From the NCBI GenBank assembly GCA_947642635.1, contig CANRTI010000001.1:4975-68974 (forward strand): DNA of 64,000 nucleotides, given 5' to 3'. The stretch is from an uncultured Mycoplasma sp. Lineage in GTDB: Bacteria > Bacillota_I > Bacilli_A > RF39 > UBA660. The position numbers were made by a program, and so were the translations under genes. Below, in pieces: positions 1 through 16,626 of the stretch (positions are counted from its first letter, which is position 1; every line of letters starts with the position of its first letter). The notes beneath the pieces were generated by a model that worked only from the letters and a program-made list of their open reading frames with translations, searched no databases and was not told the DNA's origin.

Positions 1-1121
1 TAGTATTTTTAGGATTTATTACATTAAAAGATGAATTACGAAAGGAAGCTAAAGAAGGTATTAGCTTAATTCAAAATGCTGGAATAAATGTAATAATGAT
101 TACAGGAGATGCTAAAGATACAGCAAAAAATATTGCCAAGGATGTCGGAATCATTAATCATCCAGACGATTTAGTTTTATCTAGTAGTGAATTTAATCAA
201 ATGACTGATGACCAAGTTCAAAAAATTATTTCTCGTCTTAAAGTAGTAGCAAGAGCTCTTCCCCAAGATAAAAGTCGCTTAGTAACAATTTTAGAAAGTA
301 TGAATTTAATTGTAGGGATGACTGGAGATGGAGTTAATGATGCTCCAGCTTTAAAAAAAGCAAATGTTGGTTTTGCAATGGGAAGTGGTACTGAAGTTGC
401 TAAAGAAGCTAGTGATATTGTTATAATAGATAATAATATTTTATCAATTAGTAAAGCGATTTTATATGGTCGAACTATTTTTAAAAGTATTAGACGCTTT
501 GTGATTTATCAATTAACAGTTAATATGACAGCACTATTTTTATCCATTGTTGGTTCTTATATTGGGGTTAGTACTCCTATTACAATTATTCAAATGTTAT
601 GGTTAAATATGATTATGGATACTTTTGCGGGACTAGCATTTTCTTATGAAGCACCACTTACTTATTACATGGGTGAACAACCTAAAAAATTAAATGAACC
701 AATTATAAATAAATATATGTATTCTCAAATAATAATTATGGGCTTATACTCTGCTATATTGTGTATTTTATTTTTAAAATTACCATTTTTTAAATTATTA
801 ATTCGAAGTGATTATAAGCATTTTATGACTGCTTACTTTGCATTATTTATTTTTATTGGAATCTTTAATGCTTTTAATGCTCGAACTGAAAGATTGAATA
901 TTCTATCAAATATTTTAAAAAATAAAGTCTTCTTAATTATATTTTTATTTATTTCTATTGCTCAAATATATTTAATTTATCATGGTCATGATTTGTTTCG
1001 AACATATGGTTTATCAATAAAAGAATTAGTTGTTGTAATCATCTTAGCTTTTAGTGTTATTCCAATTGATTTTATAAGAAAACTCTTATTAAAGAAAAAA
1101 GATATTAAACTAGCAATTTAA
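1..1121 (+). CDS. P-type cation-transporting ATPase (Ca2+-type), C-terminal portion; 5' end outside window
   Basis: The frame is open from the window edge (VFLGFITLKDELRKEAKEG...IMITGD). It has the hinge motif GMTGDGVNDAPALKKANVGFAMG and multiple C-terminal hydrophobic helices. Confidence 0.9.
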   Translation, partial: VFLGFITLKDELRKEAKEGISLIQNAGINVIMITGDAKDTAKNIAKDVGIINHPDDLVLSSSEFNQMTDDQVQKIISRLKVVARALPQDKSRLVTILESMNLIVGMTGDGVNDAPALKKANVGFAMGSGTEVAKEASDIVIIDNNILSISKAILYGRTIFKSIRRFVIYQLTVNMTALFLSIVGSYIGVSTPITIIQMLWLNMIMDTFAGLAFSYEAPLTYYMGEQPKKLNEPIINKYMYSQIIIMGLYSAILCILFLKLPFFKLLIRSDYKHFMTAYFALFIFIGIFNAFNARTERLNILSNILKNKVFLIIFLFISIAQIYLIYHGHDLFRTYGLSIKELVVVIILAFSVIPIDFIRKLLLKKKDIKLAI

Positions 1122-1128
1122 TATCTTT

Positions 1129-1914
1129 TTAAAATGCATTATTTAATTTTTTATAGGATAAATCATAATTATTAAGATGCACACTTTGTTCTTCTGGAAT
1201 TTTTAATTGATGATTATTATGCCATAAAATAACTTTATAAGAATTATTAGTAATACTTACTTCGGGTTCAGGATAATTAAATTTAGCCAATTCTTTTTTG
1301 ATAACTTCCCACCCTTTTTCAGAATCTTCATTAATAATATTATATTCTTGATATAATTTATATAACTTAGGATTTTTTAATAAATCTTTTCTTTCTGGCT
1401 CTACTAATCCTCCGGGACTAGTAAAAATCATACAATTAGGATAAATAGCTATTTTGATAGAAGTATCAATAAATCTTTTATTATAACTACGATGTAATAA
1501 GCAATTATTGATTAGTTCAAAAAGAACTCTGTGTGGATAATTATTCTTTATCTTAGTCTTACAATAATCAGTAATATAATTTAAAGCTTGTTCTTGCATT
1601 TCTAAAATAGTTCCCGTTATTTTAACATTATCACTAGTTTTAATTATCTCACTCAAATTATTTAAATACATTTCTTTATAAGTACTAATTTCAATAAATA
1701 AATGTGGATAATAATCTTGAGGATTTTTACCAAAAAAGATTGTTCCTAATAGAGTTAAATAAATTAAATTGGCTTCTTCTTTGATAATGCCTTTTTTCTT
1801 GAAAAAATCAAATATTTCGGGATTACCAAATAAATTTAAATATTTAACCACATATTCTCTATTTAATTCTTCAATACTTGCATAATCATTTATTTGTAAT
1901 TCTCCATTAAGCAT
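1129..1914 (-). CDS. HATPase_c_4-like putative ATP-binding/transcriptional regulator domain protein (RecG-C-like)
   Basis: The motif ELINNCLLHRSYN...SPGGL parallels EALLNAIIHRDYN...SLGGI of the 432-aa AlbA_2 protein at 26825-28123. The likely start is ATG 1914 (MLNGELQ) with GAGGAAAG upstream, overlapping the stop of the preceding gene (AATGCTTAA). Confidence 0.55.
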   Translation of the reverse strand: MLNGELQINDYASIEELNREYVVKYLNLFGNPEIFDFFKKKGIIKEEANLIYLTLLGTIFFGKNPQDYYPHLFIEISTYKEMYLNNLSEIIKTSDNVKITGTILEMQEQALNYITDYCKTKIKNNYPHRVLFELINNCLLHRSYNKRFIDTSIKIAIYPNCMIFTSPGGLVEPERKDLLKNPKLYKLYQEYNIINEDSEKGWEVIKKELAKFNYPEPEVSITNNSYKVILWHNNHQLKIPEEQSVHLNNYDLSYKKLNNAF

Positions 1915-2326
1915 TTTGATAACTTTCCTCTCTATTTTTTTCTTCCCAAAGTTCATCTACTAAATTATTTTTTGCTTCTAGTAATAACATTTCTTCATTG
2001 ACAGCTATTCCTTTTAAAAGATAATTTTTAATGCCTTTAATTATTTCATCTCGCCAAGAGCCAATAATATCTCTTGAAATTCGAAAAATTAAATAAATGT
2101 AGACATCAAATTTATAGTAGAGTTTCTTTTTTTGGTTTACTTCTATTTCTTTACATACTTCTTCTACTTCGAAATAACTTTTTGAAAAAAGATCAATAAT
2201 ATGAGCATTTATTTCAAAAGGACTAATACCCAGTAAATAACTAAGCGTTTCAATTGACATGTATAACTCATCACTATCAGTATCAAAGTAGCTTCCTAAA
2301 TGATGCAGATTATGATCTATTTGCAT
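1907..2326 (-). CDS. RhuM-like (virulence RhuM family) protein
   Basis: The C-terminal WRDEIIKGIKNYLLKGIAVNEEML resembles the RhuM family segment (FR.WAT..LKEYL.KGF..D). The true start is ATG 2326 after AAAGGAGGTG; the tracked ORF begins at an upstream TTG. Confidence 0.5.
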   Translation of the reverse strand: MQIDHNLHHLGSYFDTDSDELYMSIETLSYLLGISPFEINAHIIDLFSKSYFEVEEVCKEIEVNQKKKLYYKFDVYIYLIFRISRDIIGSWRDEIIKGIKNYLLKGIAVNEEMLLLEAKNNLVDELWEEKNREESYQNA

Positions 2327-2489
2327 ATTTTCACCTCCTTTTGCCAATAATTTTGATTAATTAATTTAAACATAAATTTTCCTCCTTCTATATATATTTA
2401 CGTTTTAAATAGTTGATTTCCTTTTTTTATTTCAAAAAGTTTAGTTTTTGATTAAAAGCCTTTATTTTAAGGCGTATATACAAAAATTT

Positions 2490-2527
2490 AAAGTAATTTT
2501 ACTACTAATTTACTACTTTAGAAAGAG
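2490..2527 (+). repeat. Putative attL direct repeat
   Basis: AAAGTAATTTTACTACTAATTTACTACTTTAGAAAGAG here versus AAAGCAATTTTACTACGAATTTACTACTTTTGAAAGCG at 10963-11000, with 4 mismatches. Confidence 0.6.
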
Positions 2528-2595
2528 TTTTGAAAAAGAGCCTAGATATGCAAGTAGAAACTTTTAAATATTATAATTAAAACGACTAGTAATGA

Positions 2596-2802
2596 CTAAT
2601 CGTTTTCTTTTTTTCCCTTATTATCTTTAAATTCAAGATTATTAAGGGCATATTCTACGCACTGATTTATAAGTTCATTTCTACTAATATCAATTTTACT
2701 AGCAATTTCGTCAATTTTATTTATTCTACTAATATCCATACGAACTGATACCACTATTTTTTCATTATTTATAGGTTTTTTGCTAGGTTGAAAAGTATTC
2801 AT
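2596..2802 (-). CDS. Ribbon-helix-helix (CopG/Arc-like) DNA-binding protein
   Basis: It contains the beta-strand EKIVVSVRMD followed by two helices (ISRINKIDEIASKIDISRNELINQCVEYAL). The ATG at 2802 is the likely start. Confidence 0.55.
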   Translation of the reverse strand: MNTFQPSKKPINNEKIVVSVRMDISRINKIDEIASKIDISRNELINQCVEYALNNLEFKDNKGKKEND

Positions 2803-2895
2803 TTCTATCACGCCCTTTCTTACATATATATTGTAATATTTTTCACACTTTATTAATATATTCAAATCAAATAGTTAAAATATAAACTACACATA

Positions 2896-2924
2896 TTGAC
2901 TACAATAAATAAAAGTGGTAGAAT
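2896..2924 (+). promoter_or_regulatory. Sigma-A-type promoter for the surface-protein/sortase operon
   Basis: TTGACT, a 17-nt spacer, then TGgTAGAAT (extended -10). It lies about 185 nt upstream of the 3110 start. Confidence 0.55.
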
Positions 2925-3109
2925 GTTTTTGTCAGTTATAAGTGTTTATAATTGATGTTGTAATTGTTGGTCGCAGTATGCAGTTAAGCCAACAATAGCA
3001 GTAATGGAACGCCGTAGTTTAGTGTTCCGTATTTTATGGTAATAATATTCTTTATGAATATTTATTATATTTCAATAAAATTTTAGATGTAAGAAAGGAA
3101 AGGTATAAA

Positions 3110-4363
3110 ATGAGAAAGACAAGTAAAATTTTATTATCGGCATTAGCAGTATCTAGTATGTTCTTTACTATGACAGTTAATGCAGAAGAACTAATACCAA
3201 CACCAAGTGAAAACCAAAATATCACAGTAGCACAAGACACTACTACAACAAAAAGTTTAAAAGACTTAACAGAGGAAGAATTAAATAATATTATTCCAAA
3301 GACTATTGAAATAAATGTTACTAAAACAGATTATGTAAACTATATTATAAGAACTAATTTTCAAGAAACAGAGGAAGAAGATATTGTTGAAAAAGCATTA
3401 GAAAGAAAGTTTATAGAAATATTTAATACAAATGGAATAACAAATGTATCAAGTTCTGATTTTTCTGTAGGTTGTGAATTAAGTAGTGGAATAGCATTAA
3501 TGGAAAATGGAAGTATTGGAATAAACGGATTAAATTATGTGGCAGAATTTACTATAAAATATACAAAAGAAAGTGGTTATAGTGAACAAGATGCAACTTA
3601 TGTTAAAAATGCAGTAAATAGTATTAAATTTGCAAAATATAGCGACGATGGAATTTATCAAACTGACGCAGTATTTACAATGTACAATATTGGCGATGAA
3701 GAAAGTGCTAGTAAATGGACTGAAAATACATATGATTTTAGTAAATTATTAAATGATAGTTCTATTACAATTAAAAAGTCATTTGGTATTGGTGGTATAG
3801 GTGGTGGAACACCTTGGGGAACAGGAACAATATTATATTTTTATAAAAATGATGTTCTATATGATATAAAGGATATTATGAATATGGGTGCTTATGGAAC
3901 AACATTAGAAAATGGAACACCAGTAAATATGGCAAGATTAGAAACTGATGACGAAATTTACAAGATAATGTCAAAAGAATTAGAAAGTAAAGGTTTTACA
4001 AATATTTTAGGTTGTTATGAATTAACGGCCTATGGAACAACTTATGACAATATGAAAGTATCATTTACTCTAGGAAATAATTACAATGGTAAAGAAGTAC
4101 AAATATTACATAAAAAGAAAGACAATACTTATGAAATCTTTAAAACAATAGTAGCAGACGGAAAAGCAGAAATAACAGTTAATGAGTTTTCACCTTTTAT
4201 GATTGCTTTAACTGAAAACACTACTACTGAAAATGTAAATAAAGCACCTAACAATGCTCAAACTTCTTCAATAGATGTTGTACTATACTCTATATTGGCT
4301 CTTGGCTCTTTAGTAGGAATTACTTATATTCTAGTTAGTAAGAAGAAAAAGGAAATAGCCTAG
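3110..4363 (+). CDS. Cell-wall-anchored surface protein (sortase-B-type sorting signal NAQTS)
   Basis: It has an N-terminal signal peptide (KILLSALAVSSMFFTMTVNA). The C-terminus carries NNAQTSS, a hydrophobic helix and a KKKKE tail. The sortase gene is immediately downstream. Confidence 0.8.
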   Translation: MRKTSKILLSALAVSSMFFTMTVNAEELIPTPSENQNITVAQDTTTTKSLKDLTEEELNNIIPKTIEINVTKTDYVNYIIRTNFQETEEEDIVEKALERKFIEIFNTNGITNVSSSDFSVGCELSSGIALMENGSIGINGLNYVAEFTIKYTKESGYSEQDATYVKNAVNSIKFAKYSDDGIYQTDAVFTMYNIGDEESASKWTENTYDFSKLLNDSSITIKKSFGIGGIGGGTPWGTGTILYFYKNDVLYDIKDIMNMGAYGTTLENGTPVNMARLETDDEIYKIMSKELESKGFTNILGCYELTAYGTTYDNMKVSFTLGNNYNGKEVQILHKKKDNTYEIFKTIVADGKAEITVNEFSPFMIALTENTTTENVNKAPNNAQTSSIDVVLYSILALGSLVGITYILVSKKKKEIA

Positions 4364-4388
4364 TTGCTATTTCTTTCTATTTAAGACA

Positions 4389-5138
4389 ATGAAAAAAAGA
4401 AAATTTAAAGTAAAAAATATTCTACTTATTTTATTTGTAGTAGTGTTCTTGTTCTCTACTACTAAAATTATATTATTCCTATTCGATTCACACAACAATA
4501 AAAAAGAAACTAAAGAATTGATACAAGATGTTATCAATATAGAAATAGAAGAAGAAAAAGAAGTATTTAAAATTGATTTTGAAAAATTGCTATCTATCAA
4601 TAATGATACTATTGGTTGGATACGATTTAATCAAGACAAAGTAAACAACCCTATTGTACATACAAGGGATAATTCTTATTATCTTAAACGCTCTTTTGAA
4701 AAGAAAAGTAATCAAGCAGGGGCAATATTTATGGACTACCGAAATACATCTTTTAATGATAAAAATGTTGTATTATTCGGTCATGCGATGTTAGATGACA
4801 CAATGTTTGGCTCATTACAAGATATATTTAAAAATGATTTTTTTGATACGAAAGAAAATAACTATATTCAAATATACAACAAAGATAATGAACTTTTAAC
4901 CTATCAAATATTTAGTTATTATATTATTGAAAAAGAAGAATATTATATAACTACTTCATTTAAAAGTGATAGTGATTTCAATAAATTTATTGATACCATT
5001 ACAAAAAGGAGTTATAAGAAGTTTGATGTAGAAGTATTTACAAATGACAATATACTTACTCTTTCTACTTGTTCGGGTACGGGTGGGACATCTAAAAGAA
5101 AAGTCGTACATGCAAAAAGAGTTGAAAATTTAGAATAA
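4389..5138 (+). CDS. srtB: Class B sortase
   Basis: It has an N-terminal TM helix, the motifs IGWIRF...NNPIV and VLFGH, and the catalytic TLSTCS motif. The size is about 250 aa. Confidence 0.85.
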   Translation: MKKRKFKVKNILLILFVVVFLFSTTKIILFLFDSHNNKKETKELIQDVINIEIEEEKEVFKIDFEKLLSINNDTIGWIRFNQDKVNNPIVHTRDNSYYLKRSFEKKSNQAGAIFMDYRNTSFNDKNVVLFGHAMLDDTMFGSLQDIFKNDFFDTKENNYIQIYNKDNELLTYQIFSYYIIEKEEYYITTSFKSDSDFNKFIDTITKRSYKKFDVEVFTNDNILTLSTCSGTGGTSKRKVVHAKRVENLE

Positions 5139-5146
5139 TCTATAAA

Positions 5147-5189
5147 ATAATTTTGGCACAAATAAATGTGATCCAAAATTATTTTTTGT
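5147..5189 (+). terminator. Rho-independent terminator after srtB
   Basis: An 11-bp stem (AATAATTTTGG / CCAAAATTATT) is followed by a T-run. Confidence 0.6.
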
Positions 5190-5248
5190 TTGAGTCTATA
5201 TTATATTGGTTAAAAATGGTATAATTGTAATGAAAGGACGATGGCTTT

Positions 5249-5680
5249 ATGGTTAATGAAATAGAAAATCAAAATAGTATCAAAATTGACGATATTTTTT
5301 ATACTGATAGACATTGTGGCGTAAAAGGACATTATATACAATTTTTTCAAGTTGTCGATGTAAAAGAAAATAATCAAGTTATATTAAGAGAAGTTAAACA
5401 AATACTTGATTCACATAACGAGGAAAATAAAGCAATGGTTATTCCATCTAAAAATCAATTTAAAGATAGTAGCGCCTTTATAGAGGACAATAACATTGGA
5501 ATAGTAAAATCAATAGAATATGATGTTAATAGTAAAAATAATGACACGCCTTATATAATTATGTCCCCTCTTACTTCTAAAAATAAAGAGTCTATAAGTA
5601 TCAATGCTTATTTATGGGACGGACAATCAAAATGTCATTATAACGATTTATTTGAGTATGTAAATAAAGAAAAAATATAA
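5249..5680 (+). CDS. Hypothetical protein (paralog A of a tandem pair)
   Basis: It shares IKIDDIFY, IQFFQVV, VIP..N.FK, IEDNNIG and LWDGQ with the next ORF. Confidence 0.65.
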   Translation: MVNEIENQNSIKIDDIFYTDRHCGVKGHYIQFFQVVDVKENNQVILREVKQILDSHNEENKAMVIPSKNQFKDSSAFIEDNNIGIVKSIEYDVNSKNNDTPYIIMSPLTSKNKESISINAYLWDGQSKCHYNDLFEYVNKEKI

Positions 5681-5703
5681 TTTTTAATAGGAGGTATATT
5701 TAT

Positions 5704-6105
5704 ATGTCAAAGGAAATAAAAAATCAATATGGTGTAAAAATTGGAGATATATTTTATTTTGATAAAAATCAATTTATACAATTCTTTCAAGTTGTTGCTT
5801 TAAAGGGAAAAAGCCAAGTTACTATAAAAGAGGTTGAATTAGAAAAAGTAGGAGAAGATGAGTATAAAAAAGCCCTTGTAATACCCCATCTAAATCATTT
5901 TAAAACTGAATGCCTTTATATAGAAGATAATAATATTGGCGCAACAAAAACTATAAAAAAATATGACGATGGTCGCCTTTATATAAGTTTTAATGATTTT
6001 TTTAATAGAAACCCTGATGGAACATTATTTCTAAAAATGTCTTATTATCAAATAGCCAATTTATGGGACGGGCAACCAAGAATACATTGCCTTAACTATT
6101 ATTAA
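5704..6105 (+). CDS. Hypothetical protein (paralog B of a tandem pair)
   Basis: The SD TAGGAGG lies upstream. The conserved blocks are shared with 5249-5680. Confidence 0.65.
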   Translation: MSKEIKNQYGVKIGDIFYFDKNQFIQFFQVVALKGKSQVTIKEVELEKVGEDEYKKALVIPHLNHFKTECLYIEDNNIGATKTIKKYDDGRLYISFNDFFNRNPDGTLFLKMSYYQIANLWDGQPRIHCLNYY

Positions 6106-6130
6106 AATATTTTTTAAAGGAGCATGAGAT

Positions 6131-6550
6131 ATGAATAATTTAAAAGAAGAATTTGACAAAAATTTTGAACTAGACAAAGAAATAAATAAAACCTATGTTG
6201 AGGTTATGGAAGTGGTAAAAAAGACACATAAACCTACCCTACAAAAATTTATTGACGAAACGGGACTAGGTAAAGGAACTTTTTATAATCTAACTAATGG
6301 CTACAAAAAACCACTCATGACATCGCTTGTTGCGTTTGCAGTAGTATTTAAAATCAATTTAAAAAATGTTGAAGATTTACTACGAGCATGGGGACTAGGT
6401 TTTGAGCCAGGTAATAAAGTACATCATGCCTACTCACAACTTATAGAAAAATTTAGTGGTAAATCAATGGCAGAATGTAACGAATTCTTAAAAGAAGTCG
6501 GAATTCATGAAAAATATTGGTTAAATGATGGCAGAGAAACTAGACAATAA
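6131..6550 (+). CDS. Putative helix-turn-helix DNA-binding protein
   Basis: The SD AAAGGAG lies upstream. It has an HTH-like segment, LQKFIDETGLGKGTFYNLTNGYKKP. Confidence 0.5.
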   Translation: MNNLKEEFDKNFELDKEINKTYVEVMEVVKKTHKPTLQKFIDETGLGKGTFYNLTNGYKKPLMTSLVAFAVVFKINLKNVEDLLRAWGLGFEPGNKVHHAYSQLIEKFSGKSMAECNEFLKEVGIHEKYWLNDGRETRQ

Positions 6551-6560
6551 TTAAAAATTA

Positions 6561-6593
6561 GAGCATATTTTCAAAAAATATGTTCTTTTTTTT
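6561..6593 (+). terminator. Rho-independent terminator
   Basis: The hairpin GAGCATATTTT-caa-AAAATATGTTC is followed by T8. Confidence 0.7.
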
Positions 6594-6608
6594 ATGTCTT
6601 GAAACGAA

Positions 6609-6713
6609 AATTTCCATCATTGGTGGAATTTTTAACCTTTAAAACAAACACTTTTTAAATTATAAACCTTTTAAACCCTTTATTTATAAGGCTTTAATTT
6701 CCATCGTCGGTGG
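6609..6713 (+). repeat. Two copies of AATTTCCATCRTYGGTGG (candidate iterons/operators)
   Basis: AATTTCCATCATTGGTGG is at 6609-6626 and AATTTCCATCGTCGGTGG at 6696-6713. Both are in the non-coding gap between the cargo and transfer modules. Confidence 0.45.
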
Positions 6714-6802
6714 GCTACGGAATTCAAAATTCTTGCTAGAATGGACTTGTAATTTGAAAGGCGCCAACTAAAATTACAAACAAAATTTAACGAAAGGAGA
6801 AA

Positions 6803-7006
6803 ATGGCGAACATGATAAATATTGAGTTACCTTGCAAAGTTGAGGAACGCGTAAGTGCTAAAACTGGTAAATCTTACATTGTAGTAGCAATTAGAGTTGA
6901 TGACGACTACGAAATGTTACTATTCCCAAGCAACGAACAACAAGCAGTTATTCGTATGGCGTTCAAAAATAGCAAGCCAAAATTTAAAACGAGTCAACAA
7001 GACTAA
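6803..7006 (+). CDS. Small hypothetical protein (67 aa)
   Basis: The SD GAAAGGAG lies upstream. The 5' UTR holds a 9-bp-stem hairpin, TTGTAATTT...AAATTACAA. Confidence 0.55.
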   Translation: MANMINIELPCKVEERVSAKTGKSYIVVAIRVDDDYEMLLFPSNEQQAVIRMAFKNSKPKFKTSQQD

Positions 7007-7085
7007 TTAAACCCTTAATGTTATATCTTTCTATTATTTTAAATAGTAGTTAGATTAGCATTAAGGTAAATTTATAAAAATTATT

Positions 7086-7167
7086 GCTACATGCTACATG
7101 CTACATATAAGGGGTAATACTAGCCCTTATATGGTGGGGGCTAAAGTGGCTACGCCACTCGCCCCAC
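7086..7167. promoter_or_regulatory. Rolling-circle-type origin/nic site: iterons, then a stem-loop with the TAGTATTAC nonanucleotide, then a GC-rich nested hairpin
   Basis: GCTACAT occurs three times in tandem (7086-7106). The stem is ATATAAGGG (7105-7113) paired with CCCTTATAT (7124-7132). The loop GTAATACTAG is the reverse complement of CTAGTATTAC. A nested hairpin GTGGGG..AGTGGC-tac-GCCACT..CCCCAC spans 7134-7167. Confidence 0.7.
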
Positions 7168-7259
7168 TCATGGGCGTGTATTAACTAGTATATGTATTAG
7201 CGCATTAGTTCTTTGAAAATTTAATAATAATCTAAACTATAAAAAATAGGAGTGATAAC

Positions 7260-8246
7260 ATGGCAGATAATAGCCAAAGTCGTAAATGGGCTTTAACGAT
7301 AAATAACCCACTAGAACATGGCTTTACGGATGAAGTAATAAAAGAAACTTTGCAAAAATTCGCTCTTGACTACTATTGTATGTGTAAGGAAATCGGAAAC
7401 GAAACTCAAACACTTCACATTCATATATTTATGTATTCAAAATCGCCGATTCGCTTTACAACGATACAGAGTCGCTTTAACAAAATAGCCCACATAGAAA
7501 AAGCCTACGGGACTATACAAGATAACATTGACTATGTGAGAAAAACGGGCAAGTTTGAAAATACAGACAAAGCCGAAACATCTATTGAGGGCAGTTTTGA
7601 AGAATACGGAACGATACCATCGGAACTACAAGAAAAAGACCCCATTATAGGGCAATTATTAGAGGATATTAAAGATGGCAAGTCAAACATCGAAATAATA
7701 GAAAATAACCCACAATGGGCTTTAAAAATACGAGATATAGACTTAATTAGAGAAACTTATCTTGCAGACAAGTACATGAAAGAAAATCGCGACATCATAG
7801 TAACTTATGTTTATGGTAAAACGGGCGTTGGTAAGACACGAGATATATACAAAAGGCATGGTGCTAAAAATATATGTCGTATCACGAATTATACAAGTAG
7901 TAGAGGTGTGAATTTTGACTCATATAAAAGCACTATGAGTACCCTAGTTTTTGAGGAATTTCATAGTCAAATACCCATCGGCGATATGCTTAACTATACC
8001 GATATATACCCCCTTATGCTACCAGCGAGATATAGCGACAAAGTGGCTTGTTACACTTATGTATATATAACTTCAAATGTTCCCCTAGAGGAGCAATATT
8101 ATGACTTACGATGTAGTCTAAAGTATAGAGAAGTTTGGGACGCATTTTTGCGTAGAATTCATAACATAATTGAGTACAAAATTGATGGTTCAATTATAGA
8201 ACATAAATTAACTAAAAAATTGGAGGAATTAGAAAATGAAAAATAA
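7260..8246 (+). CDS. rep: Rep protein, HUH endonuclease plus SF3 helicase (CRESS-DNA virus / pCRESS plasmid type; probable relaxase/initiator of the element)
   Basis: Motif I is WALTINNP, motif II is HIHIF and motif III is YVRKTGK. Walker A is GKTGVGKT, Walker B is LVFEEF and motif C is ITSN. Confidence 0.85.
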   Translation: MADNSQSRKWALTINNPLEHGFTDEVIKETLQKFALDYYCMCKEIGNETQTLHIHIFMYSKSPIRFTTIQSRFNKIAHIEKAYGTIQDNIDYVRKTGKFENTDKAETSIEGSFEEYGTIPSELQEKDPIIGQLLEDIKDGKSNIEIIENNPQWALKIRDIDLIRETYLADKYMKENRDIIVTYVYGKTGVGKTRDIYKRHGAKNICRITNYTSSRGVNFDSYKSTMSTLVFEEFHSQIPIGDMLNYTDIYPLMLPARYSDKVACYTYVYITSNVPLEEQYYDLRCSLKYREVWDAFLRRIHNIIEYKIDGSIIEHKLTKKLEELENEK

Positions 8247-9453
8247 AATAATGAATATATTAAAAAAAATAAATTATATTAAGATTTATATTGTGTTGTT
8301 ATACATAATAGTAGCACAATTATTATGGCACTCAAGAGGCTATGTAATAGATTACATGGTTTCAAAAGCCACAACTGAATTACAAATAAAAATGATAAAT
8401 GCAGTAGTCAATATTGGGCTTGCACTACTTTTAACGCTAATCTTAATAGCACTAATAATAACTTTAAAAAGACACAATAAAGCCAAAGAAGAAGAACAAA
8501 AAAATGTTCAAGATGTCGGCTTAAAAAATGAAAGTGGCGAATATACGGAAATAATTGATATTTTAGATGGCGAAGAAGAAAACGAGTCTATATATGTTAT
8601 AGACCCTAAAAATATTTCTATTGAAAAATTAAGAGCAAGACAAGACGATATAGAAACGGCTTATCATATAGATATACATTATATGACACCAAGAATACCA
8701 ACAAAATATATCAATGTTTATGCAACACCTAGAGATTTATTACACCCTAAACTATTCCAAGTAACCCTAAATGACAACTTACTAGACGACTTTTTATCGG
8801 CTTTAGTAGTTGGAAGTACGGGAAGTGGTAAAACATATTTTACACACCAATTACTAGGAAAAATAGCCTTAAATAAATCTTGTAATGGTGAAGATGTACG
8901 AGTATTTATAAGTGATATAAAAAATGAAGATTTTAGACAATTTAAAAATCGTCCTAATTATTATGGTATCAATGCAATAGATGGAATTAAAGAGGTCCAT
9001 AAAATACTTAAAGAGCGTATGGAAAATGACGAAGACAACGAAGATAAAGAAACAATTATTCTTTTAATTGAAGAATATGCAGTACTTCTCAATTCAATAA
9101 AGAATAAAAGTGATAAAGAGGAAATTAAAGATATGGTTGCAGATTTATTGTTTATAGGGCGTAGCAAAAAAATAATAACAATAGTAAGCCTACAAAGAGC
9201 AGACGCAGAATACTTTGTAAGAGGTGCTAGAGAACAATTTAAAAAAATAATTTTGATGGGCGAAATATCCGATACTCAAAAGAAAATGCTTTTAGACGAA
9301 AAAAAGCAGAAACAAATTAGAGAAGTTAATAAACAAGGATATGGATACCTTTGCGAAGATGGAAAAATGAAAGTTACGCGTATTCAAGTAGCAAAAATTT
9401 CACAAAAGGACAAAGAAGAAATTGACAATATTATAAGTAGTAAGATGGTTTAA
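8236..9453 (+). CDS. FtsK/SpoIIIE-TcpA-like membrane DNA translocase (coupling protein)
   Basis: It has two N-terminal TM helices, Walker A VVGSTGSGKT and Walker B-like IILLIEE. Confidence 0.75.
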   Translation: MKNKIMNILKKINYIKIYIVLLYIIVAQLLWHSRGYVIDYMVSKATTELQIKMINAVVNIGLALLLTLILIALIITLKRHNKAKEEEQKNVQDVGLKNESGEYTEIIDILDGEEENESIYVIDPKNISIEKLRARQDDIETAYHIDIHYMTPRIPTKYINVYATPRDLLHPKLFQVTLNDNLLDDFLSALVVGSTGSGKTYFTHQLLGKIALNKSCNGEDVRVFISDIKNEDFRQFKNRPNYYGINAIDGIKEVHKILKERMENDEDNEDKETIILLIEEYAVLLNSIKNKSDKEEIKDMVADLLFIGRSKKIITIVSLQRADAEYFVRGAREQFKKIILMGEISDTQKKMLLDEKKQKQIREVNKQGYGYLCEDGKMKVTRIQVAKISQKDKEEIDNIISSKMV

Positions 9454-9690
9454 ATGGTAGATAATATCAACTATCAAGAGTCTTGTAAAAATATGATATA
9501 TGTTCCTATAAGTGAAAAATATACGCTTACTATTGAAGAAGCGTCAAAGTATTTCCGTATTGGCGAAAATAAACTTCGTAAACTAGCAGAAGAAAACCTA
9601 AACGCAAGTTGGGTTTTAATGAATGGCAACCGAATTCAAATAAAAAGAAAGCAATTTGAAAAAATTATTGATACTTTAAATGTAATTTAA
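9454..9690 (+). CDS. xis: Excisionase-family DNA-binding protein (Tn916 Xis-like)
   Basis: It is a 78-aa protein lying immediately upstream of int. It has an HTH segment, [20 protein letters not shown]. Confidence 0.7.
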
Positions 9691-9769
9691 TGAAAATTGA
9701 GCCTTAATGTGTGATATAATGTTATTGCATATCAAGGCTCTTTCTATTATTGAAAGGAGCAAAAAAAAT

Positions 9770-11059
9770 ATGATAGAAAAAAGACGCGATAAAAGAAATC
9801 GTATTTTACATAACGGAGAGAGCCAAAGAAAAGATGGAAGATATGTTTATAAATATACCGATAGTTTCGGCAAACCACAATTTATATATGCTTGGAAGTT
9901 AGTACCAACCGATAAAACACCAAACGGGAAACGCGACGACAAATCTTTAAGAGAAAAGGAACAAGAAATTTTAAAGGACATTAACGATGGAATCGACACC
10001 ATAGGTAAAAAAATAAGTGTATGTCAATTATATGCTAAAAAAAATAATCAACGACCAAATGTTAAAGATAGCACTAAAATAGGAAGAAATAGACTTATGA
10101 GGTTATTAGAAGAAGATAAAATCGGTGCTTGTTCTATTGAAAATGTTAAGATGTCGGACGCCAAAGAATGGGCTATACGCATGAAAGAAAAAGGAATAGC
10201 CTACCAAACAATAAGAAATGACAAGCGTTCTTTATATTCAGCGTTTCAAATGGCTATACAAGACGACTATATAAGGAAAAACCCGTTTGAGTTTAAAATT
10301 GACGATGTAATAGATAATGACACCGAGAAGAATATACCCCTTACATTAGAACAAGAAGAAAGCCTATACTCTTTTATTCAAAATGATAAAACATACTCTA
10401 AAAACTATGACGAAATTATTTTAATAAGAGAAACGGGACTTCGTATATCGGAATTTTGCGGACTGATAGACACCGACCTAGATTTTGATAATAGACTTAT
10501 CAATGTAGAACGCCAACTTTTAAGAAATACCGAACGAGGTTATTATATTGACGATACTAAAACCGATAATGGGGTAAGAAAAGTACCTATGAGCGACAAA
10601 GCGTTTGAAATCTTTAAGCGTATAATAGATAATTGTAAAAACGCAAAAACTATTGTTATTGATGGTTATAGTGGTTTCCTATTCTTAAAAAGAGATGGAT
10701 ACCCAAAAGTACGAGATAACTACGAAAGTATATTTAAAGGAATTGTTAAAAAATACAATAAATGTCATGAAGAACAACTTCCTAAAAAAATGACACCACA
10801 TACATTAAGACATACCTTTTGTACTAATTGGGCTAACGATGGACTAAACCCTCATACATTACAATATATTATGGGGCATAAAAATATTGAAATGACATTA
10901 AGTTATTATACACACCCTACCTATATGTCGGCAAAAGCAGAGATGGAAAAAATAAATAAACAAAAGCAATTTTACTACGAATTTACTACTTTTGAAAGCG
11001 AAAATATAAGAAATTATAAAAATATATGTGAATATCTTCCAAAATTAAAAATGTCTTAA
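9770..11059 (+). CDS. int: Tyrosine recombinase, Tn916-family integrase
   Basis: The N-terminal arm-binding segment RRDKRNRILHNGESQRKDGRYVYKYTDSFGKPQF is Tn916 Int-like. It also has GLRISEFCGL, HTLRHTF and LSYYTH (catalytic Tyr). The start is ATG 9770 after GAAAGGAG. Confidence 0.9.
   Translation: MIEKRRDKRNRILHNGESQRKDGRYVYKYTDSFGKPQFIYAWKLVPTDKTPNGKRDDKSLREKEQEILKDINDGIDTIGKKISVCQLYAKKNNQRPNVKDSTKIGRNRLMRLLEEDKIGACSIENVKMSDAKEWAIRMKEKGIAYQTIRNDKRSLYSAFQMAIQDDYIRKNPFEFKIDDVIDNDTEKNIPLTLEQEESLYSFIQNDKTYSKNYDEIILIRETGLRISEFCGLIDTDLDFDNRLINVERQLLRNTERGYYIDDTKTDNGVRKVPMSDKAFEIFKRIIDNCKNAKTIVIDGYSGFLFLKRDGYPKVRDNYESIFKGIVKKYNKCHEEQLPKKMTPHTLRHTFCTNWANDGLNPHTLQYIMGHKNIEMTLSYYTHPTYMSAKAEMEKINKQKQFYYEFTTFESENIRNYKNICEYLPKLKMS
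10963..11000 (+). repeat. Putative attR direct repeat (inside the 3' tail of int)
   Basis: It matches 2490-2527. It begins where similarity to the Tn916 Int C-terminus ends (…EKINKQKQ | FYYEFTTFE…). Confidence 0.6.
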
Positions 11060-11194
11060 ATGCTTATAAATAAAGGTTATAAAGACATTTAAGAACTTAT
11101 AAAAATATAATCAAAAAATTACACTATTTTTAACCACAAAAAAATGAAAAAAACGTTAATTTTCTTCATTTTGAATTCATTTTTCTCTTAAAAA

Positions 11195-13312
11195 TTAATT
11201 TTCAACTAAATTATTATTGTGAATTAATTTTTCTAAATTTTTATAACCAACTTGTTCATAATTACTTTTTTCAATAATAGTCTCTTTATTGAGAACTTTT
11301 TTAATCTTCAAATATTTTTCTAATCCATCTTTAGTTAAACTAGAAAACTTAATCGTCGCATCAACTAAATCTTCTAATTCATTTTCTCTTTGACTAGATA
11401 GTTCATTACTAAAACCAACTTTACGATTAGATAAAACATCATCAGTGATAAAAATAAAGGAATTATTAAAATAAATCTTATCACCTTTATTGTCACGGAT
11501 ATATCCTTCTTTTAATATCTCTTTAATTAATTCTTTGACACTTTGATGAGCTGCTTGATAATTATCAAATAAAATAATACTAAAATTATTGTTTTTTAAA
11601 GTACTAAGAAGATGTTCATCATTATAGCCAACATACCCACTATTAACACCAATTAATTTATTTAAATCCATACTACTATGATATTCTTTTAAATCGATGC
11701 GAACAAAATTATTTCCTGGAATATTTTCCGCAATTCTTTTCACAATCGTACTTTTTCCTAATCCTTCACTACCAGTTAAATAAATTTTTAAAAAACCTTT
11801 TTTATTTAATAAATTATCTTTTATTAAACACATTATTTTTTTGACATAATTATTAATACCATATAATTCTTTATTTAAATTATCTTCAATATCTTTTAAA
11901 CAATTTAATTTATTTTTTGTAAATATCATATTAGTTTTATTTTCTAAAACATTTATAATATCACTTTCCCTTAAAATTAGTTTTTGACTTTGTTGATAAT
12001 TTTTAATTTTTTTATTTATAGCTAACTCTTCACTATATATTTTTAAAGCATTATCATAATCATTTTTCTTTAATAATTTTTCTTTAGTTTTCTTTAAAGC
12101 TTCTAATTTTCGATATAATTCTTTTTTTTCAGGGCAATAATTATTTTGAGTTTTAACTTTAGAACAAACAGAATCTAGAAAATCAATCGCTTTATCTGGA
12201 TTTTTCTTAGTTTTAATAAATTTATCAGTATAATAAATAACTGAATCAATAATATTATCATTTATAATAACATTATGATGACGTTCATATTCACCTTTAA
12301 CTTTACTTAAAATTTCTTTAGTTTCAGCACTGTTAGGTTCTCTTACATTAACCATTTCAAATCTTCTAGTCAATGCTTTATCACAAGCAAAATATTTTTG
12401 GTATTCACTAGTAGTTGTAGCCCCAATACATTTAATTTTTCCTCTAGCTAAAGCTGGTTTAAAAATATCACCTGCGGTAATTGCGCCTTCTGCTCCACCA
12501 GCGCTAACCATCGAATGAATTTCATCAATAAATAAAATAATATTACTGTTATTTTCTAATTCTTTAATTATTTTAGTTAATTTCTCTTCAAATTCACCAC
12601 GGTACTTTGTTCCTGATACTAATGAACCCATTTCTAAAGCCACTATTTTAGTATTATATAAATTGTCAGGAACTTCTTTTCTTTCAATTCGGCGAACTAA
12701 TTCTTCAACAATTGCTGTCTTTCCAACCCCAGCATCGCCAATTAAAATTGGATTGTTTTTCTTTTTTCTAAGTAATGTTTCAATAATTTGTTCAATCTCT
12801 TTTTCACGGCCAATGACATTTTCTTCAAAATTTATCGAATTATTTAATAATATTCCCGTTTCATAAATTTCTAATTTTTTATTTGCAGTCAAATTATTTT
12901 TATTCAAATTTTCATAAATTTCATCAATATCAATACCCATGCCAATTAAAAGACGAATAGCAATACCTTCACCTTCTTCTAAAATAGAAAGAACTAAATG
13001 TCTTGGTGTTACCAGTGAATTATTATTTTCTTTGGCATTATCAAGAGCATTATTTATTACTCTTTTTAAAAGAGGGGTATAAAGATTGATTTCACAAGCT
13101 TTAGTAGCATTTCCTACCATTATATTTAATTCTTTTTTAAAGCTACTATATGTTAGATTATATTCTTTTAAATAATTAGCCATATCTTTATCTAGTGCTA
13201 ATATTCCTAACAATAAATGTTCTGTACCAACATACGGATGATGTAGTGTTAAACGTTCTTCTTCCGCTTTCCGGAAAATATTAGATACATGTACTCCAAA
13301 ATTATTAAACAT
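11195..13312 (-). CDS. clpC: ClpC-like AAA+ ATPase (Clp_N repeats, intact D1, degenerate D2)
   Basis: It has the Clp_N motif HPYVGTEHLLLGIL. D1 has GDAGVGKTAIVEEL and ILFIDEIH. D2 has GSEGLGKS, but its Walker B is ILFDNYQ. A KVGF ClpP-loop-like motif is present. Confidence 0.8.
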   Translation of the reverse strand: MFNNFGVHVSNIFRKAEEERLTLHHPYVGTEHLLLGILALDKDMANYLKEYNLTYSSFKKELNIMVGNATKACEINLYTPLLKRVINNALDNAKENNNSLVTPRHLVLSILEEGEGIAIRLLIGMGIDIDEIYENLNKNNLTANKKLEIYETGILLNNSINFEENVIGREKEIEQIIETLLRKKKNNPILIGDAGVGKTAIVEELVRRIERKEVPDNLYNTKIVALEMGSLVSGTKYRGEFEEKLTKIIKELENNSNIILFIDEIHSMVSAGGAEGAITAGDIFKPALARGKIKCIGATTTSEYQKYFACDKALTRRFEMVNVREPNSAETKEILSKVKGEYERHHNVIINDNIIDSVIYYTDKFIKTKKNPDKAIDFLDSVCSKVKTQNNYCPEKKELYRKLEALKKTKEKLLKKNDYDNALKIYSEELAINKKIKNYQQSQKLILRESDIINVLENKTNMIFTKNKLNCLKDIEDNLNKELYGINNYVKKIMCLIKDNLLNKKGFLKIYLTGSEGLGKSTIVKRIAENIPGNNFVRIDLKEYHSSMDLNKLIGVNSGYVGYNDEHLLSTLKNNNFSIILFDNYQAAHQSVKELIKEILKEGYIRDNKGDKIYFNNSFIFITDDVLSNRKVGFSNELSSQRENELEDLVDATIKFSSLTKDGLEKYLKIKKVLNKETIIEKSNYEQVGYKNLEKLIHNNNLVEN

Positions 13313-13396
13313 AAAATTTCTCCCTTACCATTCTATGAATATATTGTTTTATTTAGAAGAATTTTATACAAAAAAAACTAAGATTTGAAAAATATC

Positions 13397-15286: not shown

Positions 15287-15306
15287 ATTAGTTCCTCCTT
15301 ATGCCC

Positions 15307-15912
15307 TTAATTATTTCTTTGAGTAGCAGCATAACTAACTTTGATTATTTCATAAGCGTCTTCATTCATAATATATTCATCATTAGTTATTAAGCCAGCA
15401 TATTTAACAATAACTTTATATTTAGTATTACCTCTAGTAGTAGCATCCACTTTTTTATAAATAATTTTCTTTTTAGTCTCATTATTATCAGCAGTATTAG
15501 AAATTGTAATTATCTCACTAGGGTCTGTTAAATTATGAATTTCTACTAATTCAAAATCCATACCAGCATCAATTGTTAAATATAAATCTGTATTAACTTC
15601 TATTTCACTAGTATCAACATTAAATATGTATTCTAAATTACTAGTTGGTCTAAAAGTTCCTGTTTCACAAGTAACCTTATCTTTTTTATTCGCTTCATCA
15701 TATTTAGTTTCACAATTATCAGCCGCAATAGTTTCATCTCGAGTTATTTTAACATTAAATTTGGCTGCTCTTGCTATATCGTCACTACTTTTACTTGTGA
15801 TATATCTCGAATAGGTTACTACAGTTGTAAGAAGTGCCATTACTCCTATGTACATGAATAACCATTTTCTTAAATTTTTGCGAAATCTCTTACTATGTAA
15901 TAATCCTTTCAT
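15307..15912 (-). CDS. TasA/camelysin-like small secreted protein (201 aa) with SipW-type signal
   Basis: It has an N-terminal helix followed by VVTYSRYITSKSSD. It lies directly downstream of a SipW gene. Confidence 0.6.
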   Translation of the reverse strand: MKGLLHSKRFRKNLRKWLFMYIGVMALLTTVVTYSRYITSKSSDDIARAAKFNVKITRDETIAADNCETKYDEANKKDKVTCETGTFRPTSNLEYIFNVDTSEIEVNTDLYLTIDAGMDFELVEIHNLTDPSEIITISNTADNNETKKKIIYKKVDATTRGNTKYKVIVKYAGLITNDEYIMNEDAYEIIKVSYAATQRNN

Positions 15913-15922
15913 TTTACTTCAC

Positions 15923-16624: not shown

Positions 16625-16626
16625 AA

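Follow-up and report, generated by a model that had tools for sequence, protein, structure and literature searches.

An 8.7-kb integrated element with a CRESS-type Rep and a TcpA-family ATPase in an uncultured Bacilli genome

What kind of mobile element joins a replication initiator (Rep) of the type encoded by CRESS DNA viruses (circular, Rep-encoding and single-stranded) to the integrase of a conjugative transposon and an FtsK-like ATPase, and how might such an element pass from cell to cell? The question is posed by a 64,000-nucleotide stretch of the genome of an uncultured Mycoplasma sp. (GTDB lineage Bacteria; Bacillota_I; Bacilli_A; RF39; UBA660; assembly GCA_947642635.1, contig CANRTI010000001.1, positions 4,975 to 68,974 of the forward strand), hereafter the window, in which a reading of the sequence alone (the original prediction) had placed an element of this kind. 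All four genes on which that reading relied, those for Rep, the FtsK/TcpA-like ATPase, the excisionase (Xis) and the integrase (Int), are present in the list of open reading frames (ORFs), and every motif quoted for their products can be read: WALTINNP, HIHIF, YVRK, GKTGVGKT, VFEEF and ITSN in Rep, VVGSTGSGKT in the ATPase and RRDKRNRILHNGESQRKDGRYVYKY in Int. With high confidence, the locus is an 8.7-kb insertion representing an integrative mobilizable element (IME) of the pCRESS2 or IME-PF02407 class. The original prediction is right on the identity of the element and overstates its significance; the combination of genes that it presented as notable had already been published, as IME_Class_7/PF02407 in 2017 and as pCRESS2 integrated plasmids in 2019.

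Ends of the element and its recombination module

The extent of the insertion can be read from unoccupied copies of its target. Exact-sequence look-ups of flanking host proteins led to conspecific metagenome contigs (L009-L011, L013 and L015) in which window 1-2429 (100% identical) joins window 11124-16000 (99.98% identical) directly, so that the inserted DNA comprises 8,694 bp, window 2430-11123. The left flank is 100% identical to L009, L010 and L013 over the whole of window 1-2429, and the sole mismatch of the right flank falls within the attR 9-mer. The unoccupied site reads GATTTCCTTTTTTTA followed immediately by ACCACAAAAAAATG; its attB, TTTTTTT-AACCAC-AAAAAAA, is intergenic and has the form of a T-run/N6/A-run target. 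The features of the ends and of the recombination module are as follows.

2430-11123, plus strand: inserted element, 8,694 bp (from the empty-site contigs; ends and core in common with L001)
2421-2429: attL crossover region CTTTTTTTA, the T-run of the target (comparison with the empty-site contigs)
11124-11132: attR crossover region CTATTTTTA (comparison with the empty-site contigs)
2445-2454, plus strand: left-end inverted repeat TTTTTGATTA, 10 bp (read from the sequence; partner at 11108-11118)
11108-11118, minus strand: right-end inverted repeat TAATCAAAAAA, reverse complement of TTTTTTGATTA (kept at the right ends of relatives)
2490-2525, plus strand: left copy of a 36-nt repeat with two TTTACTAC motifs 11 nt apart (repeat search)
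10963-10998, plus strand: right copy of the 36-nt repeat, with two TTTACTAC motifs 11 nt apart, within the 3′ end of int (repeat search)
9454-9690, plus strand: Tn916-type excisionase (Xis), 78 aa (PF09035, 69.4 bits)
9767-11059, plus strand: tyrosine integrase (Int) of the Tn916/Tn1549 family (PF02920, PF00589; the ORF reaches back to 9707)

The two crossover regions are identical at 8 of 9 positions, which leaves a 9-bp uncertainty in the placement of the crossover; the predicted attP junction contains CAAAAAATTACACTATTTTTATTTCAAAAAGTTTAGTTTTTG. The G+C content is 0.30-0.35 in the core of the element, compared with 0.20-0.27 in the flanks. A 107-kb contig, L001, carries an element with a 94%-identical Rep at another chromosomal location and with other cargo, and has window 2434-2550 (the ends) and 5142 to ~11122 (the core) in common with the window element. 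Among close relatives in species-representative genomes, at least nine distinct insertion sites were found, each with a T-run and an A-run on either side of a short spacer. The left-end repeat TTTTTGATTA is kept in the left ends of L001, L018, L021, L022, L024 and L025, and we infer that the inverted repeats at the two ends are the core-type sites of Int; in a global alignment, the ends show weak similarity, and the repeat reported here is the 10-bp TTTTTGATTA only. One contig of a metagenome-assembled genome (MAG), L019 (CANSWQ010000030.1; 8,376 bp), begins and stops exactly at the left and right ends of the element, reflecting either excision of the element or a break in the assembly, with more than one context for the element; no overlap between the termini of this contig was seen.

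The original prediction had drawn the element from 2490 to 11000. Its claim of a discrete element stands, and the boundaries hold up in the comparison with the empty-site contigs, but the coordinates had been taken from the 36-nt direct repeat, whereas the true ends are at 2430 and 11123. As a candidate attachment (att) site, this repeat was rejected: its copies lie 60 to 125 nt inside the true junctions and are kept in a copy of the element inserted elsewhere. Because that copy, in L001, has the same ends, the repeat is internal to the element. The two repeat copies are 92% identical to each other and are conserved in L001 as well. Of the motif that they contain, TTTACTAC, the window has 15 occurrences where 4.3 would be expected, and only at the two ends of the element is the motif paired. 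Given that Int carries a Tn916 arm-binding domain, these pairs are probable arm-type sites; the DR2 arm site of Tn916 contains GTAGTAAA, the reverse complement of TTTACTAC.

Int matches PF02920, the Tn916 integrase DNA-binding domain, with 113 bits and PF00589 with 125 bits. Among solved structures, it matches the 'Int protein' of PDB entries 6en0, 6emz and 6emy, which are Tn1549 integrase-DNA complexes, at E=3e-135, and the N-terminal domain of Tn916 Int (1bb8/1tn9) at E=6e-28, so that the original description of the integrase as Tn916-like is borne out. The N-terminal Pfam domain starts at residue 22 of the ORF, so that translation probably begins at the ATG at 9767, which an AAAGGAG ribosome-binding site precedes. 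From the Int and Xis matches, the many T-run/A-run sites and the non-identical crossover sequences, it follows that the recombination module is of a genuine Tn916/Tn1549 type, with low target specificity and tolerance of mismatched crossover sequences.

In all these respects, i.e., an Int with arm-binding and catalytic domains, Xis, a T-run/N6/A-run target and non-identical crossover sequences, the element is like Tn916 and Tn1549. The latter, however, are conjugative transposons of 18-34 kb with a full type IV secretion system (T4SS) and a MobT (Rep_trans) relaxase, whereas the window element has neither a T4SS nor MobT. A decayed Tn916/Tn1549-like transposon that lost its T4SS genes would explain an Int so close to 6en0/6emz/6emy and a Tn916-type Xis, and integrative and conjugative elements (ICEs) of the Tn916 family also encode a TcpA-type protein (PMC5357655). 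Nevertheless, we rate this origin as the least credible of those considered here: the relaxase candidate belongs to PF02407 rather than to Rep_trans/MobT, the compact core of origin, Rep and TcpA occurs with other recombinases in hundreds of genomes, and between the ends of the element all ORFs are intact and no T4SS pseudogenes are found.

A pCRESS2-type Rep and its hairpin origin

The replication module consists of rep and, upstream of it, an origin that is read on the opposite strand.

7260-8246, plus strand: Rep, HUH endonuclease and superfamily 3 (SF3) helicase, pCRESS2 group (PF02407, alignment with porcine circovirus 2 Rep, BLASTP)
7104-7133, minus strand: origin hairpin with a 10-bp stem, CATATAAGGG/CCCTTATATG, and the loop C-TAGTATTAC (DNA fold, Rfam, conservation)
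7114-7122, minus strand: nonamer TAGTATTAC, with the predicted nick between 7116 and 7115
7086-7106, minus strand: three tandem ATGTAGC iterons directly 3′ of the origin hairpin (sequence; within the RF03070 consensus)
7134-7168, minus strand: second G+C-rich hairpin adjoining the origin, inner stem AGTGGC/GCCACT (same DNA fold)

Rep matches the PF02407 (Viral_Rep) profile with 27.2 bits (cut-off 26), and in a phmmer search its residues 7-280 align to the full-length Rep of porcine circovirus 2 (PDB 7lar; E=2.8e-10). The HUH motifs are ALTINN (I), HIHIF (II) and YVRK (III). Taken alone, the window Rep stays below the threshold of PF00910, which its relatives pass; the SF3 half of the protein is nonetheless real because the 7lar alignment covers Walker A, Walker B and motif C, pairing GKTGVGKT with GPPGCGKS, VFEEF with VIDDF and ITSN with ITSN. 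The catalytic residues H53, H55, Y92, K192, E232, E233 and N273 are invariant in the alignment of the family. Rep thus matches PF02407, has an SF3 domain and does not group with the Rep_1/Rep_2 initiators, so that the CRESS-type HUH-SF3 Rep which the original prediction had placed in an IME is confirmed, with its role as a relaxase predicted from sequence.

Within the diversity of bacterial HUH-SF3 Reps, the protein displays the signature of pCRESS2, namely, a Glu-Glu Walker B (VFEEF), an Asn in motif C (ITSN), a motif II of the HUH rather than the HUQ form (the latter as in pCRESS3) and no YLxH. In BLASTP comparisons, it is 35-53% identical (131-327 bits) to pCRESS2 references from the supplement of Kazlauskas 2019, all 8 of the 8 tested, as opposed to 23-26% identity (54-60 bits) to pCRESS1 references; the RepA of the Bifidobacterium plasmid p4M is 28.7% identical. 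By sequence comparison, then, Rep is a member of the pCRESS2 group. Like circovirus Reps, it combines motifs I-III with SF3, although motif II is HUH in the window Rep and HUQ in circoviruses. In contrast to circoviruses, the window element is 8.7 kb of integrated double-stranded DNA without a capsid gene: no capsid or other virion family was found among the element ORFs, and the element is not a CRESS-DNA virus.

The family to which this Rep belongs is large: the protein collection contains 1,907 representatives of its clusters, and the sources name members 'viral replication protein'. Relatives are encoded in at least 440 species-representative genomes from several families, most of them Clostridia (Oscillospiraceae, Lachnospiraceae and Acutalibacteraceae, including the cultured Flavonifractor, Pseudoflavonifractor and Agathobaculum). 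The remaining hosts include gut MAGs labelled 'uncultured Tenericutes/Bacilli', and it is there that the closest Reps (up to 99%) are found. Across these genomes, the core of origin, Rep and TcpA recurs with serine recombinases and with other tyrosine integrases.

The origin hairpin, a feature that the original prediction had missed, lies 138 nt upstream of rep. The region 7075-7185 on the minus strand folds as DNA with -21.2 kcal/mol (z=-3.95), and the loop presents TAGTATTAC, the nonanucleotide of circoviruses and nanoviruses. The count of this nonamer in the window (3, compared with 1.26 expected) is not significant, and the evidence therefore rests on its position, hairpin context and conservation across loci. 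In every Rep-bearing locus of the first set retrieved, the nonamer is single and upstream of rep; nAGTATTAC lies within a hairpin loop in 79/79 genome loci with enough upstream sequence, one locus having GAGTACTAC; and in 147 of 158 Rep-bearing loci the nonamer is presented by a perfect hairpin of at least 7 bp. These 147 hairpins have 35 different inner-stem sequences and hence show strong covariation of the stem. In 59 related hairpins, the nonamer is followed by two or three copies of TGTAGC. The orientation of the origin depends on the clade: origin and rep share a strand in the Clostridia clade, whereas they are on opposite strands in the Bacilli/Tenericutes clade.

As in circovirus and nanovirus origins, the loop of a hairpin presents (T/A/C)AGTATTAC, and short iterons adjoin the stem on its 3′ side. 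By analogy with circovirus and geminivirus Reps, a nick is predicted within TAGTATT↓AC on the minus strand, and the predicted cleavage substrate of Rep is the origin sequence CTAGTATTACC. The second hairpin, to which a sequence adjoining the origin in L004 is similar, is a candidate single-strand origin or Rep-binding element. The origin motif is already catalogued, given that window 7085-7134 (minus strand) matches the Rfam model RF03070 'ssNA-helicase' over its full length, 1-49, with 57.4 bits (gathering score 41.5; E=2e-8); the consensus of this model is exactly the hairpin, the nonamer and the iterons, and its Rfam entry is that of a candidate small RNA. RF03070 was reportedly described by Weinberg in 2017. 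The text and supplements of Kazlauskas 2019 (PMC6668415) and Tarasova & Khayat 2021 contain no mention of a nonanucleotide for pCRESS elements.

The same pairing of origin and Rep is encountered in filamentous phages. Two circular, Zot-encoding inoviruses from rodent faeces, L016 (PQ006121.1, 1-1941) and L017 (PQ006124.1, 1-2991), in which Zot (PF05707) scores 65-85 bits, encode Reps with the TAGTATTAC hairpin upstream; these Reps exceed the thresholds of both PF02407 and PF00910, and their identity to the window Rep is 41-43%. The inovirus genomes in which a pCRESS2-type HUH-SF3 Rep was encountered are circular and 5.7-10 kb in size. Among the IMG/VR contigs with a Rep relative (L098-L164; Reps 35-56% identical), the hairpin is present in 60 of 67, Zot is recognisable in at least 12 and FtsK is borne by 5. 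Because the inovirus genomes have both a related Rep and the same hairpin, the ori-Rep cassette is common to TcpA-bearing islands and filamentous phages. Inovirus Reps have been described as lacking the helicase domain (Kazlauskas 2019, PMC6668415), and the HUH-SF3 Reps of these inoviruses may, against that statement, deserve a separate look.

Given these relatives, one may ask whether the window element is itself a filamentous-phage satellite, or a degenerate relative of such a phage, with single-stranded DNA circles that a helper inovirus packages or exports. The related Reps and the TAGTATTAC hairpin in Zot-encoding inoviruses, as well as in the 60 of 67 IMG/VR contigs, are what such a history would leave behind. 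However, none of the element ORFs matches PF05707 or encodes a coat or other morphogenesis protein, so that the element is not an inovirus prophage; no packaging signal was identified; and in integrated elements it is TcpA rather than Zot that conservedly accompanies Rep. We consider a phage satellite very improbable.

A TcpA-family ATPase and the possible routes of transfer

Directly after rep comes the gene for the ATPase.

8236-9453, plus strand: TcpA-family (FtsK-like) membrane ATPase, 405 aa, putative coupling protein (profile comparisons)

Its ORF start overlaps the rep stop by 11 nt. Irrespective of the type of recombinase, rep is succeeded by an FtsK-like gene in 78 of 80 genome loci, and the other two loci are contigs that end at this point. 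The protein has two N-terminal hydrophobic segments and matches an FtsK/SpoIIIE-like family in PHROG (E=1e-16). A profile built from its eight-member clade matches an independent Clostridia-clade profile with 99.7% probability (E=2e-25) over 305 columns, which take in the membrane segments, the linker domain, Walker A/B and the QR motif, and matches pCW3 TcpA (6o1w) with 90% probability (E=1.5e-6); because of these two comparisons, we assign the window ATPase to the TcpA family, of which it is a divergent member. A wider profile, made from 26 ATPases that follow rep, matches the 'DNA translocase coupling protein' of PDB 6o1w/6o1x/6o1z with 292 bits (E=5e-86), compared with 108 bits for FtsK. 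In tblastn, the 6o1w sequence matches, with 100% identity, a gene on NC_010937, a C. perfringens plasmid of 47,263 bp; it is the conjugation coupling protein TcpA of the pCW3 family.

The coupling-protein gene is exchanged independently of rep. In L024 (10977-12167) and L025 (10977-12446), the TcpA-like proteins are 41% and 23% identical to the window ATPase, respectively, and the accompanying Reps are 92% identical to the window Rep; the same intramodular replacement has been reported by Coluzzi 2017 (PMC5357655).

In agreement with the original prediction, the element encodes no conjugation channel: scanned against Pfam, NCBIfam and PHROGs, its 12 ORFs, none longer than 450 aa, yield no VirB4, VirD4 or mating-pore family. 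Could it then be self-transmissible in the manner of actinomycete integrative and conjugative elements (AICEs), with the TcpA-like hexamer, perhaps aided by small core proteins, moving DNA between attached cells independently of any T4SS, as does TraB of Streptomyces? The layout of AICEs is int-xis-rep-FtsK-like, which that of the window element mirrors; as in pSAM2 and SLP1, int and xis are combined with a rep for rolling-circle replication and with one FtsK-like translocase. Moreover, no T4SS was found in the element or in the ten largest other ORFs of the window, and several conserved core proteins have no assigned function. AICE Reps are of the RepSA/RepAM type, whereas here the Rep family is PF02407 and the host is of the Firmicute type. 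AICE TraB has a C-terminal DNA-recognition domain and moves double-stranded DNA, whereas the window ATPase ends ~25 residues past the motor domain and so has no such domain; it groups with TcpA, which works with a T4SS. An HUH Rep and a hairpin origin imply a single-stranded rather than a double-stranded substrate, and conjugation independent of a T4SS is not known from Firmicutes. The AICE-like transfer of double-stranded DNA that the original prediction had entertained thus finds no support, the nearest solved relative of the ATPase being a T4SS coupling protein, and a self-transmissible minimal element is, in our estimation, improbable.

Taken as a whole, the evidence makes it likely that the locus is a helper-dependent mobilizable element of the pCRESS2 or IME-PF02407 class. 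Under such a scheme, Int and Xis would excise a double-stranded circle through the staggered, heteroduplex-tolerant mechanism of Tn916/Tn1549. Rep would bind the iterons, extrude the hairpin and nick the minus strand at the predicted site, holding the 5′ end via Tyr92, while the SF3 helicase would unwind the DNA and rolling-circle synthesis would keep the circle. The Rep-bound single strand could then be passed to the TcpA hexamer of the element, which would dock on the FA-type T4SS of a co-resident Tn916-, ICEBs1- or pCW3-like element and pump the strand into a recipient. There, Rep would rejoin the strand, the complement would be made and Int would insert the circle at another AT-rich site. 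For the route through a helper T4SS, which we infer, our confidence is moderate.

Several observations weigh against helper-dependent mobilization. The ATPase remains under the cut-off of PF01580 (22.6 bits compared with 24), yields no direct PDB match, whether the single protein or the eight-member clade profile is used as the query, and is only ~20% identical to the Clostridia-clade proteins. Its C-terminus is short relative to that of pCW3 TcpA, the C-terminal domain of which enhances conjugation according to review text. The ten largest ORFs elsewhere in the window encode housekeeping and surface proteins, with no helper T4SS among them. Neither transfer of a PF02407-class IME nor relaxase action by such a Rep is reported in PMC5357655, PMC5704250 or PMC9585547. 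Furthermore, inoviruses make use of this ori-Rep cassette in the absence of TcpA, which shows that Rep is primarily a replication initiator, and Kazlauskas 2019 (PMC6668415) annotates the ATPase as a 'segregation' protein.

The main rival explanation takes up this last point: the element would be an integrated, non-conjugative rolling-circle plasmid, brought into and out of the chromosome by Int and Xis and replicated by Rep once excised, that uses the ATPase for segregation or resolution of the replicating circles and spreads between species by routes such as transformation or transduction. The terms 'integrated plasmids' and 'FtsK-like DNA segregation ATPase' of Kazlauskas 2019 (PMC6668415) accord with it, as do the related RepA of the Bifidobacterium plasmid p4M, the FtsK-related proteins that Coluzzi 2017 (PMC5357655) lists on small plasmids and the lack of any demonstration of transfer for the PF02407 class in the three studies cited above. 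Conversely, among solved structures pCW3 TcpA is by far the closest to the ATPase family, well ahead of chromosomal FtsK (292 compared with 108 bits), the N-terminal membrane anchor is typical of coupling proteins, and the presence of relatives in at least 440 species of several families, at many sites, implies efficient horizontal transfer. We therefore regard a non-conjugative plasmid as unlikely, albeit less so than any of the other alternatives, and favor a helper-dependent mobilizable element.

Cargo, published relatives and implications

The left part of the element is variable cargo, followed by small core genes that extend to the origin.

2596-2865, minus strand: ribbon-helix-helix/CopG-like regulator (PHROG transcriptional repressor/CopG-like, E=1e-7 to 5e-4)
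3110-4363, plus strand: cargo surface protein, secreted, its C-terminal sorting signal made up of NNAQTSS, hydrophobic residues and KKKKEIA (translation)
4389-5138, plus strand: cargo class B sortase (TIGR03064 sortase_srtB, 194 bits, cut-off 153.75; PF04203)
5249-6105, plus strand (5249-5680 and 5704-6105): two paralogous small all-beta proteins of the conserved core, 44% identical to each other
6131-6550, plus strand: 139-aa conserved core protein (match at E=4e-6 to phrog_4031, a family of unknown function; also present in L001 and L002)
6803-7006, plus strand: 67-aa conserved core ORF between the 139-aa regulator candidate and the origin (64-aa gene in L001-L003)

The cargo likely comprises a class B sortase and its substrate. 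The secreted protein has no match in Pfam, NCBIfam or PHROG, and we take it for a sortase B substrate from its C-terminal motif and the neighbouring gene. The chromosome carries another sortase-domain gene at 50177-51784, and the closest host MAGs are labelled 'uncultured Tenericutes'; the host probably belongs to a walled Bacilli lineage. The ribbon-helix-helix regulator sits in the variable left part and probably starts at an internal Met (2596-2802). Window 2580-2882 has 72% DNA identity to a region (~6267-6556) of the serine-recombinase elements L004-L006, the Reps of which are 63% identical to that of the window, suggesting that regulators are shuffled between element subfamilies.

The all-beta paralogs are conserved in L001, and the homologs found for them form only 12 clusters. 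An assignment to the DUF961/HelP or 'SSB (2k5d-like)' proteins, which are listed for pCRESS2 elements and known from Tn916 and ICEBs1, was considered but is not supported: there is no sequence match in Pfam, NCBIfam, PHROG or PDB, and an AlphaFold model with pLDDT 88.7 finds no Foldseek match in PDB better than E=0.06 (TM 0.35). The 139-aa protein is possibly a DNA-binding regulator. The 67-aa ORF has no family match in Pfam, NCBIfam or PHROG; upstream of it, AATTTCCATC(A/G)T(T/C)GGTGG occurs twice, at window 6610-6628 and 6697-6715, the first copy belonging to a palindrome, TTCCA...TGGAA, and the pair looks like the operator of one small regulator.

Outside the element, the neighbour of the target site is a HATPase_c_4 protein (window 1129-2347, minus strand), a second paralog of which, also with a Schlafen AlbA_2 domain, is encoded at 26825-28123 on the minus strand. 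On the other side, window 13397-19638 (minus strand) holds a host cluster of a signal-peptidase-like protein (Peptidase_S24 in the contig annotation) and proteins of 201, 629 and 1003 aa, the last with a Cadherin-like domain, which resembles a SipW/TasA-type fibre or pilus locus.

How does the element compare with those already published? The streptococcal IME_Class_7 of Coluzzi 2017 (PMC5357655) combines a tyrosine integrase, a Rel_PF02407 relaxase and TcpA; Guedon 2017 (PMC5704250) lists IME_SiniSF1_ebfC and proposes helpers 'with TcpA and FA' T4SS for PF02407 IMEs; and ICEscreen 2022 (PMC9585547) provides three hidden Markov models for PF02407-like relaxases and recognizes an IME superfamily PF02407. 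Like these IMEs, the window element has a tyrosine integrase, a PF02407 relaxase candidate and a TcpA-type protein but no VirB4. It differs in that tcpA lies downstream of rep, which it overlaps, instead of upstream of the relaxase gene, and in that a low-specificity Tn916/Tn1549-type Int takes the place of site-specific integration (ebfC). Two PF02407 IMEs were found in the 2017 survey, whereas the window subfamily is far more widespread.

The likeness to the pCRESS2 integrated plasmids is equally close, extending to an HUH and SF3 Rep, an FtsK-like ATPase, a Tn916-type Xis, a tyrosine integrase and the absence of virus structural genes. According to Kazlauskas 2019 (PMC6668415), outside pCRESS7 and pCRESS9, 97.5% of the bacterial HUH-SF3 Reps are encoded in site-specifically integrated elements, and an FtsK-like ATPase is common to pCRESS1-3, 5 and 8; examples of pCRESS2 come from Lachnospiraceae bacterium 6_1_63FAA and [Clostridium] methoxybenzovorans SR3, and among the entries of the supplementary table is a pCRESS2 element of Lachnospiraceae in which an integrase and a Tn916-type Xis accompany FtsK and RC-Rep (PF02407). 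In the published tables, however, the ATPase gene precedes rep, whereas rep comes first in the window element; an 'SSB (2k5d/DUF961-like)' is listed for the published examples, whereas the small core proteins of the window element have no such similarity; and the published elements, from Clostridia/Lachnospiraceae, are described as residing mostly in tRNA genes or rpsI, whereas the window subfamily occupies many AT-rich sites, in the manner of Tn916, in gut MAGs labelled 'Tenericutes/Bacilli'. The variations of the window element (rep first, a Tn1549-like Int, the sortase cargo and the host lineage) are within the known class, and its architecture, Rep group and origin motif are all already catalogued.

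The original prediction had also held that the locus bears directly on the proposed evolutionary link between plasmids and CRESS-DNA viruses. It does so as a member of the pCRESS2 group; nevertheless, the window copy adds a member and no new argument because the pCRESS2 integrated plasmids are the very dataset behind that proposal, and the current picture is unchanged. A bolder scenario, to which we give little credence, would make more of the locus: the translationally coupled Rep and TcpA might form a self-sufficient, T4SS-free unit of DNA export, or else the DNA might be exported by a co-resident filamentous phage with the same TAGTATTAC origin. If either were true, no smaller autonomous machines of horizontal transfer than these 8-kb elements would be known from bacteria of the Firmicute type, and the elements would be a living model for the passage of a plasmid ori-Rep cassette into a virus.

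The replication module of CRESS-DNA viruses has been proposed to derive from bacterial relatives that make up this class, which is also a widespread type of putative mobilizable island. The window copy is a clean specimen of this class, with exact ends, an empty site, intact genes, an Int with solved relatives and a predicted nick site, and it makes three ideas testable, namely, that Rep acts as a conjugative relaxase, that TcpA docks on a helper, and that the TAGTATTAC hairpin serves as both oriV and oriT.

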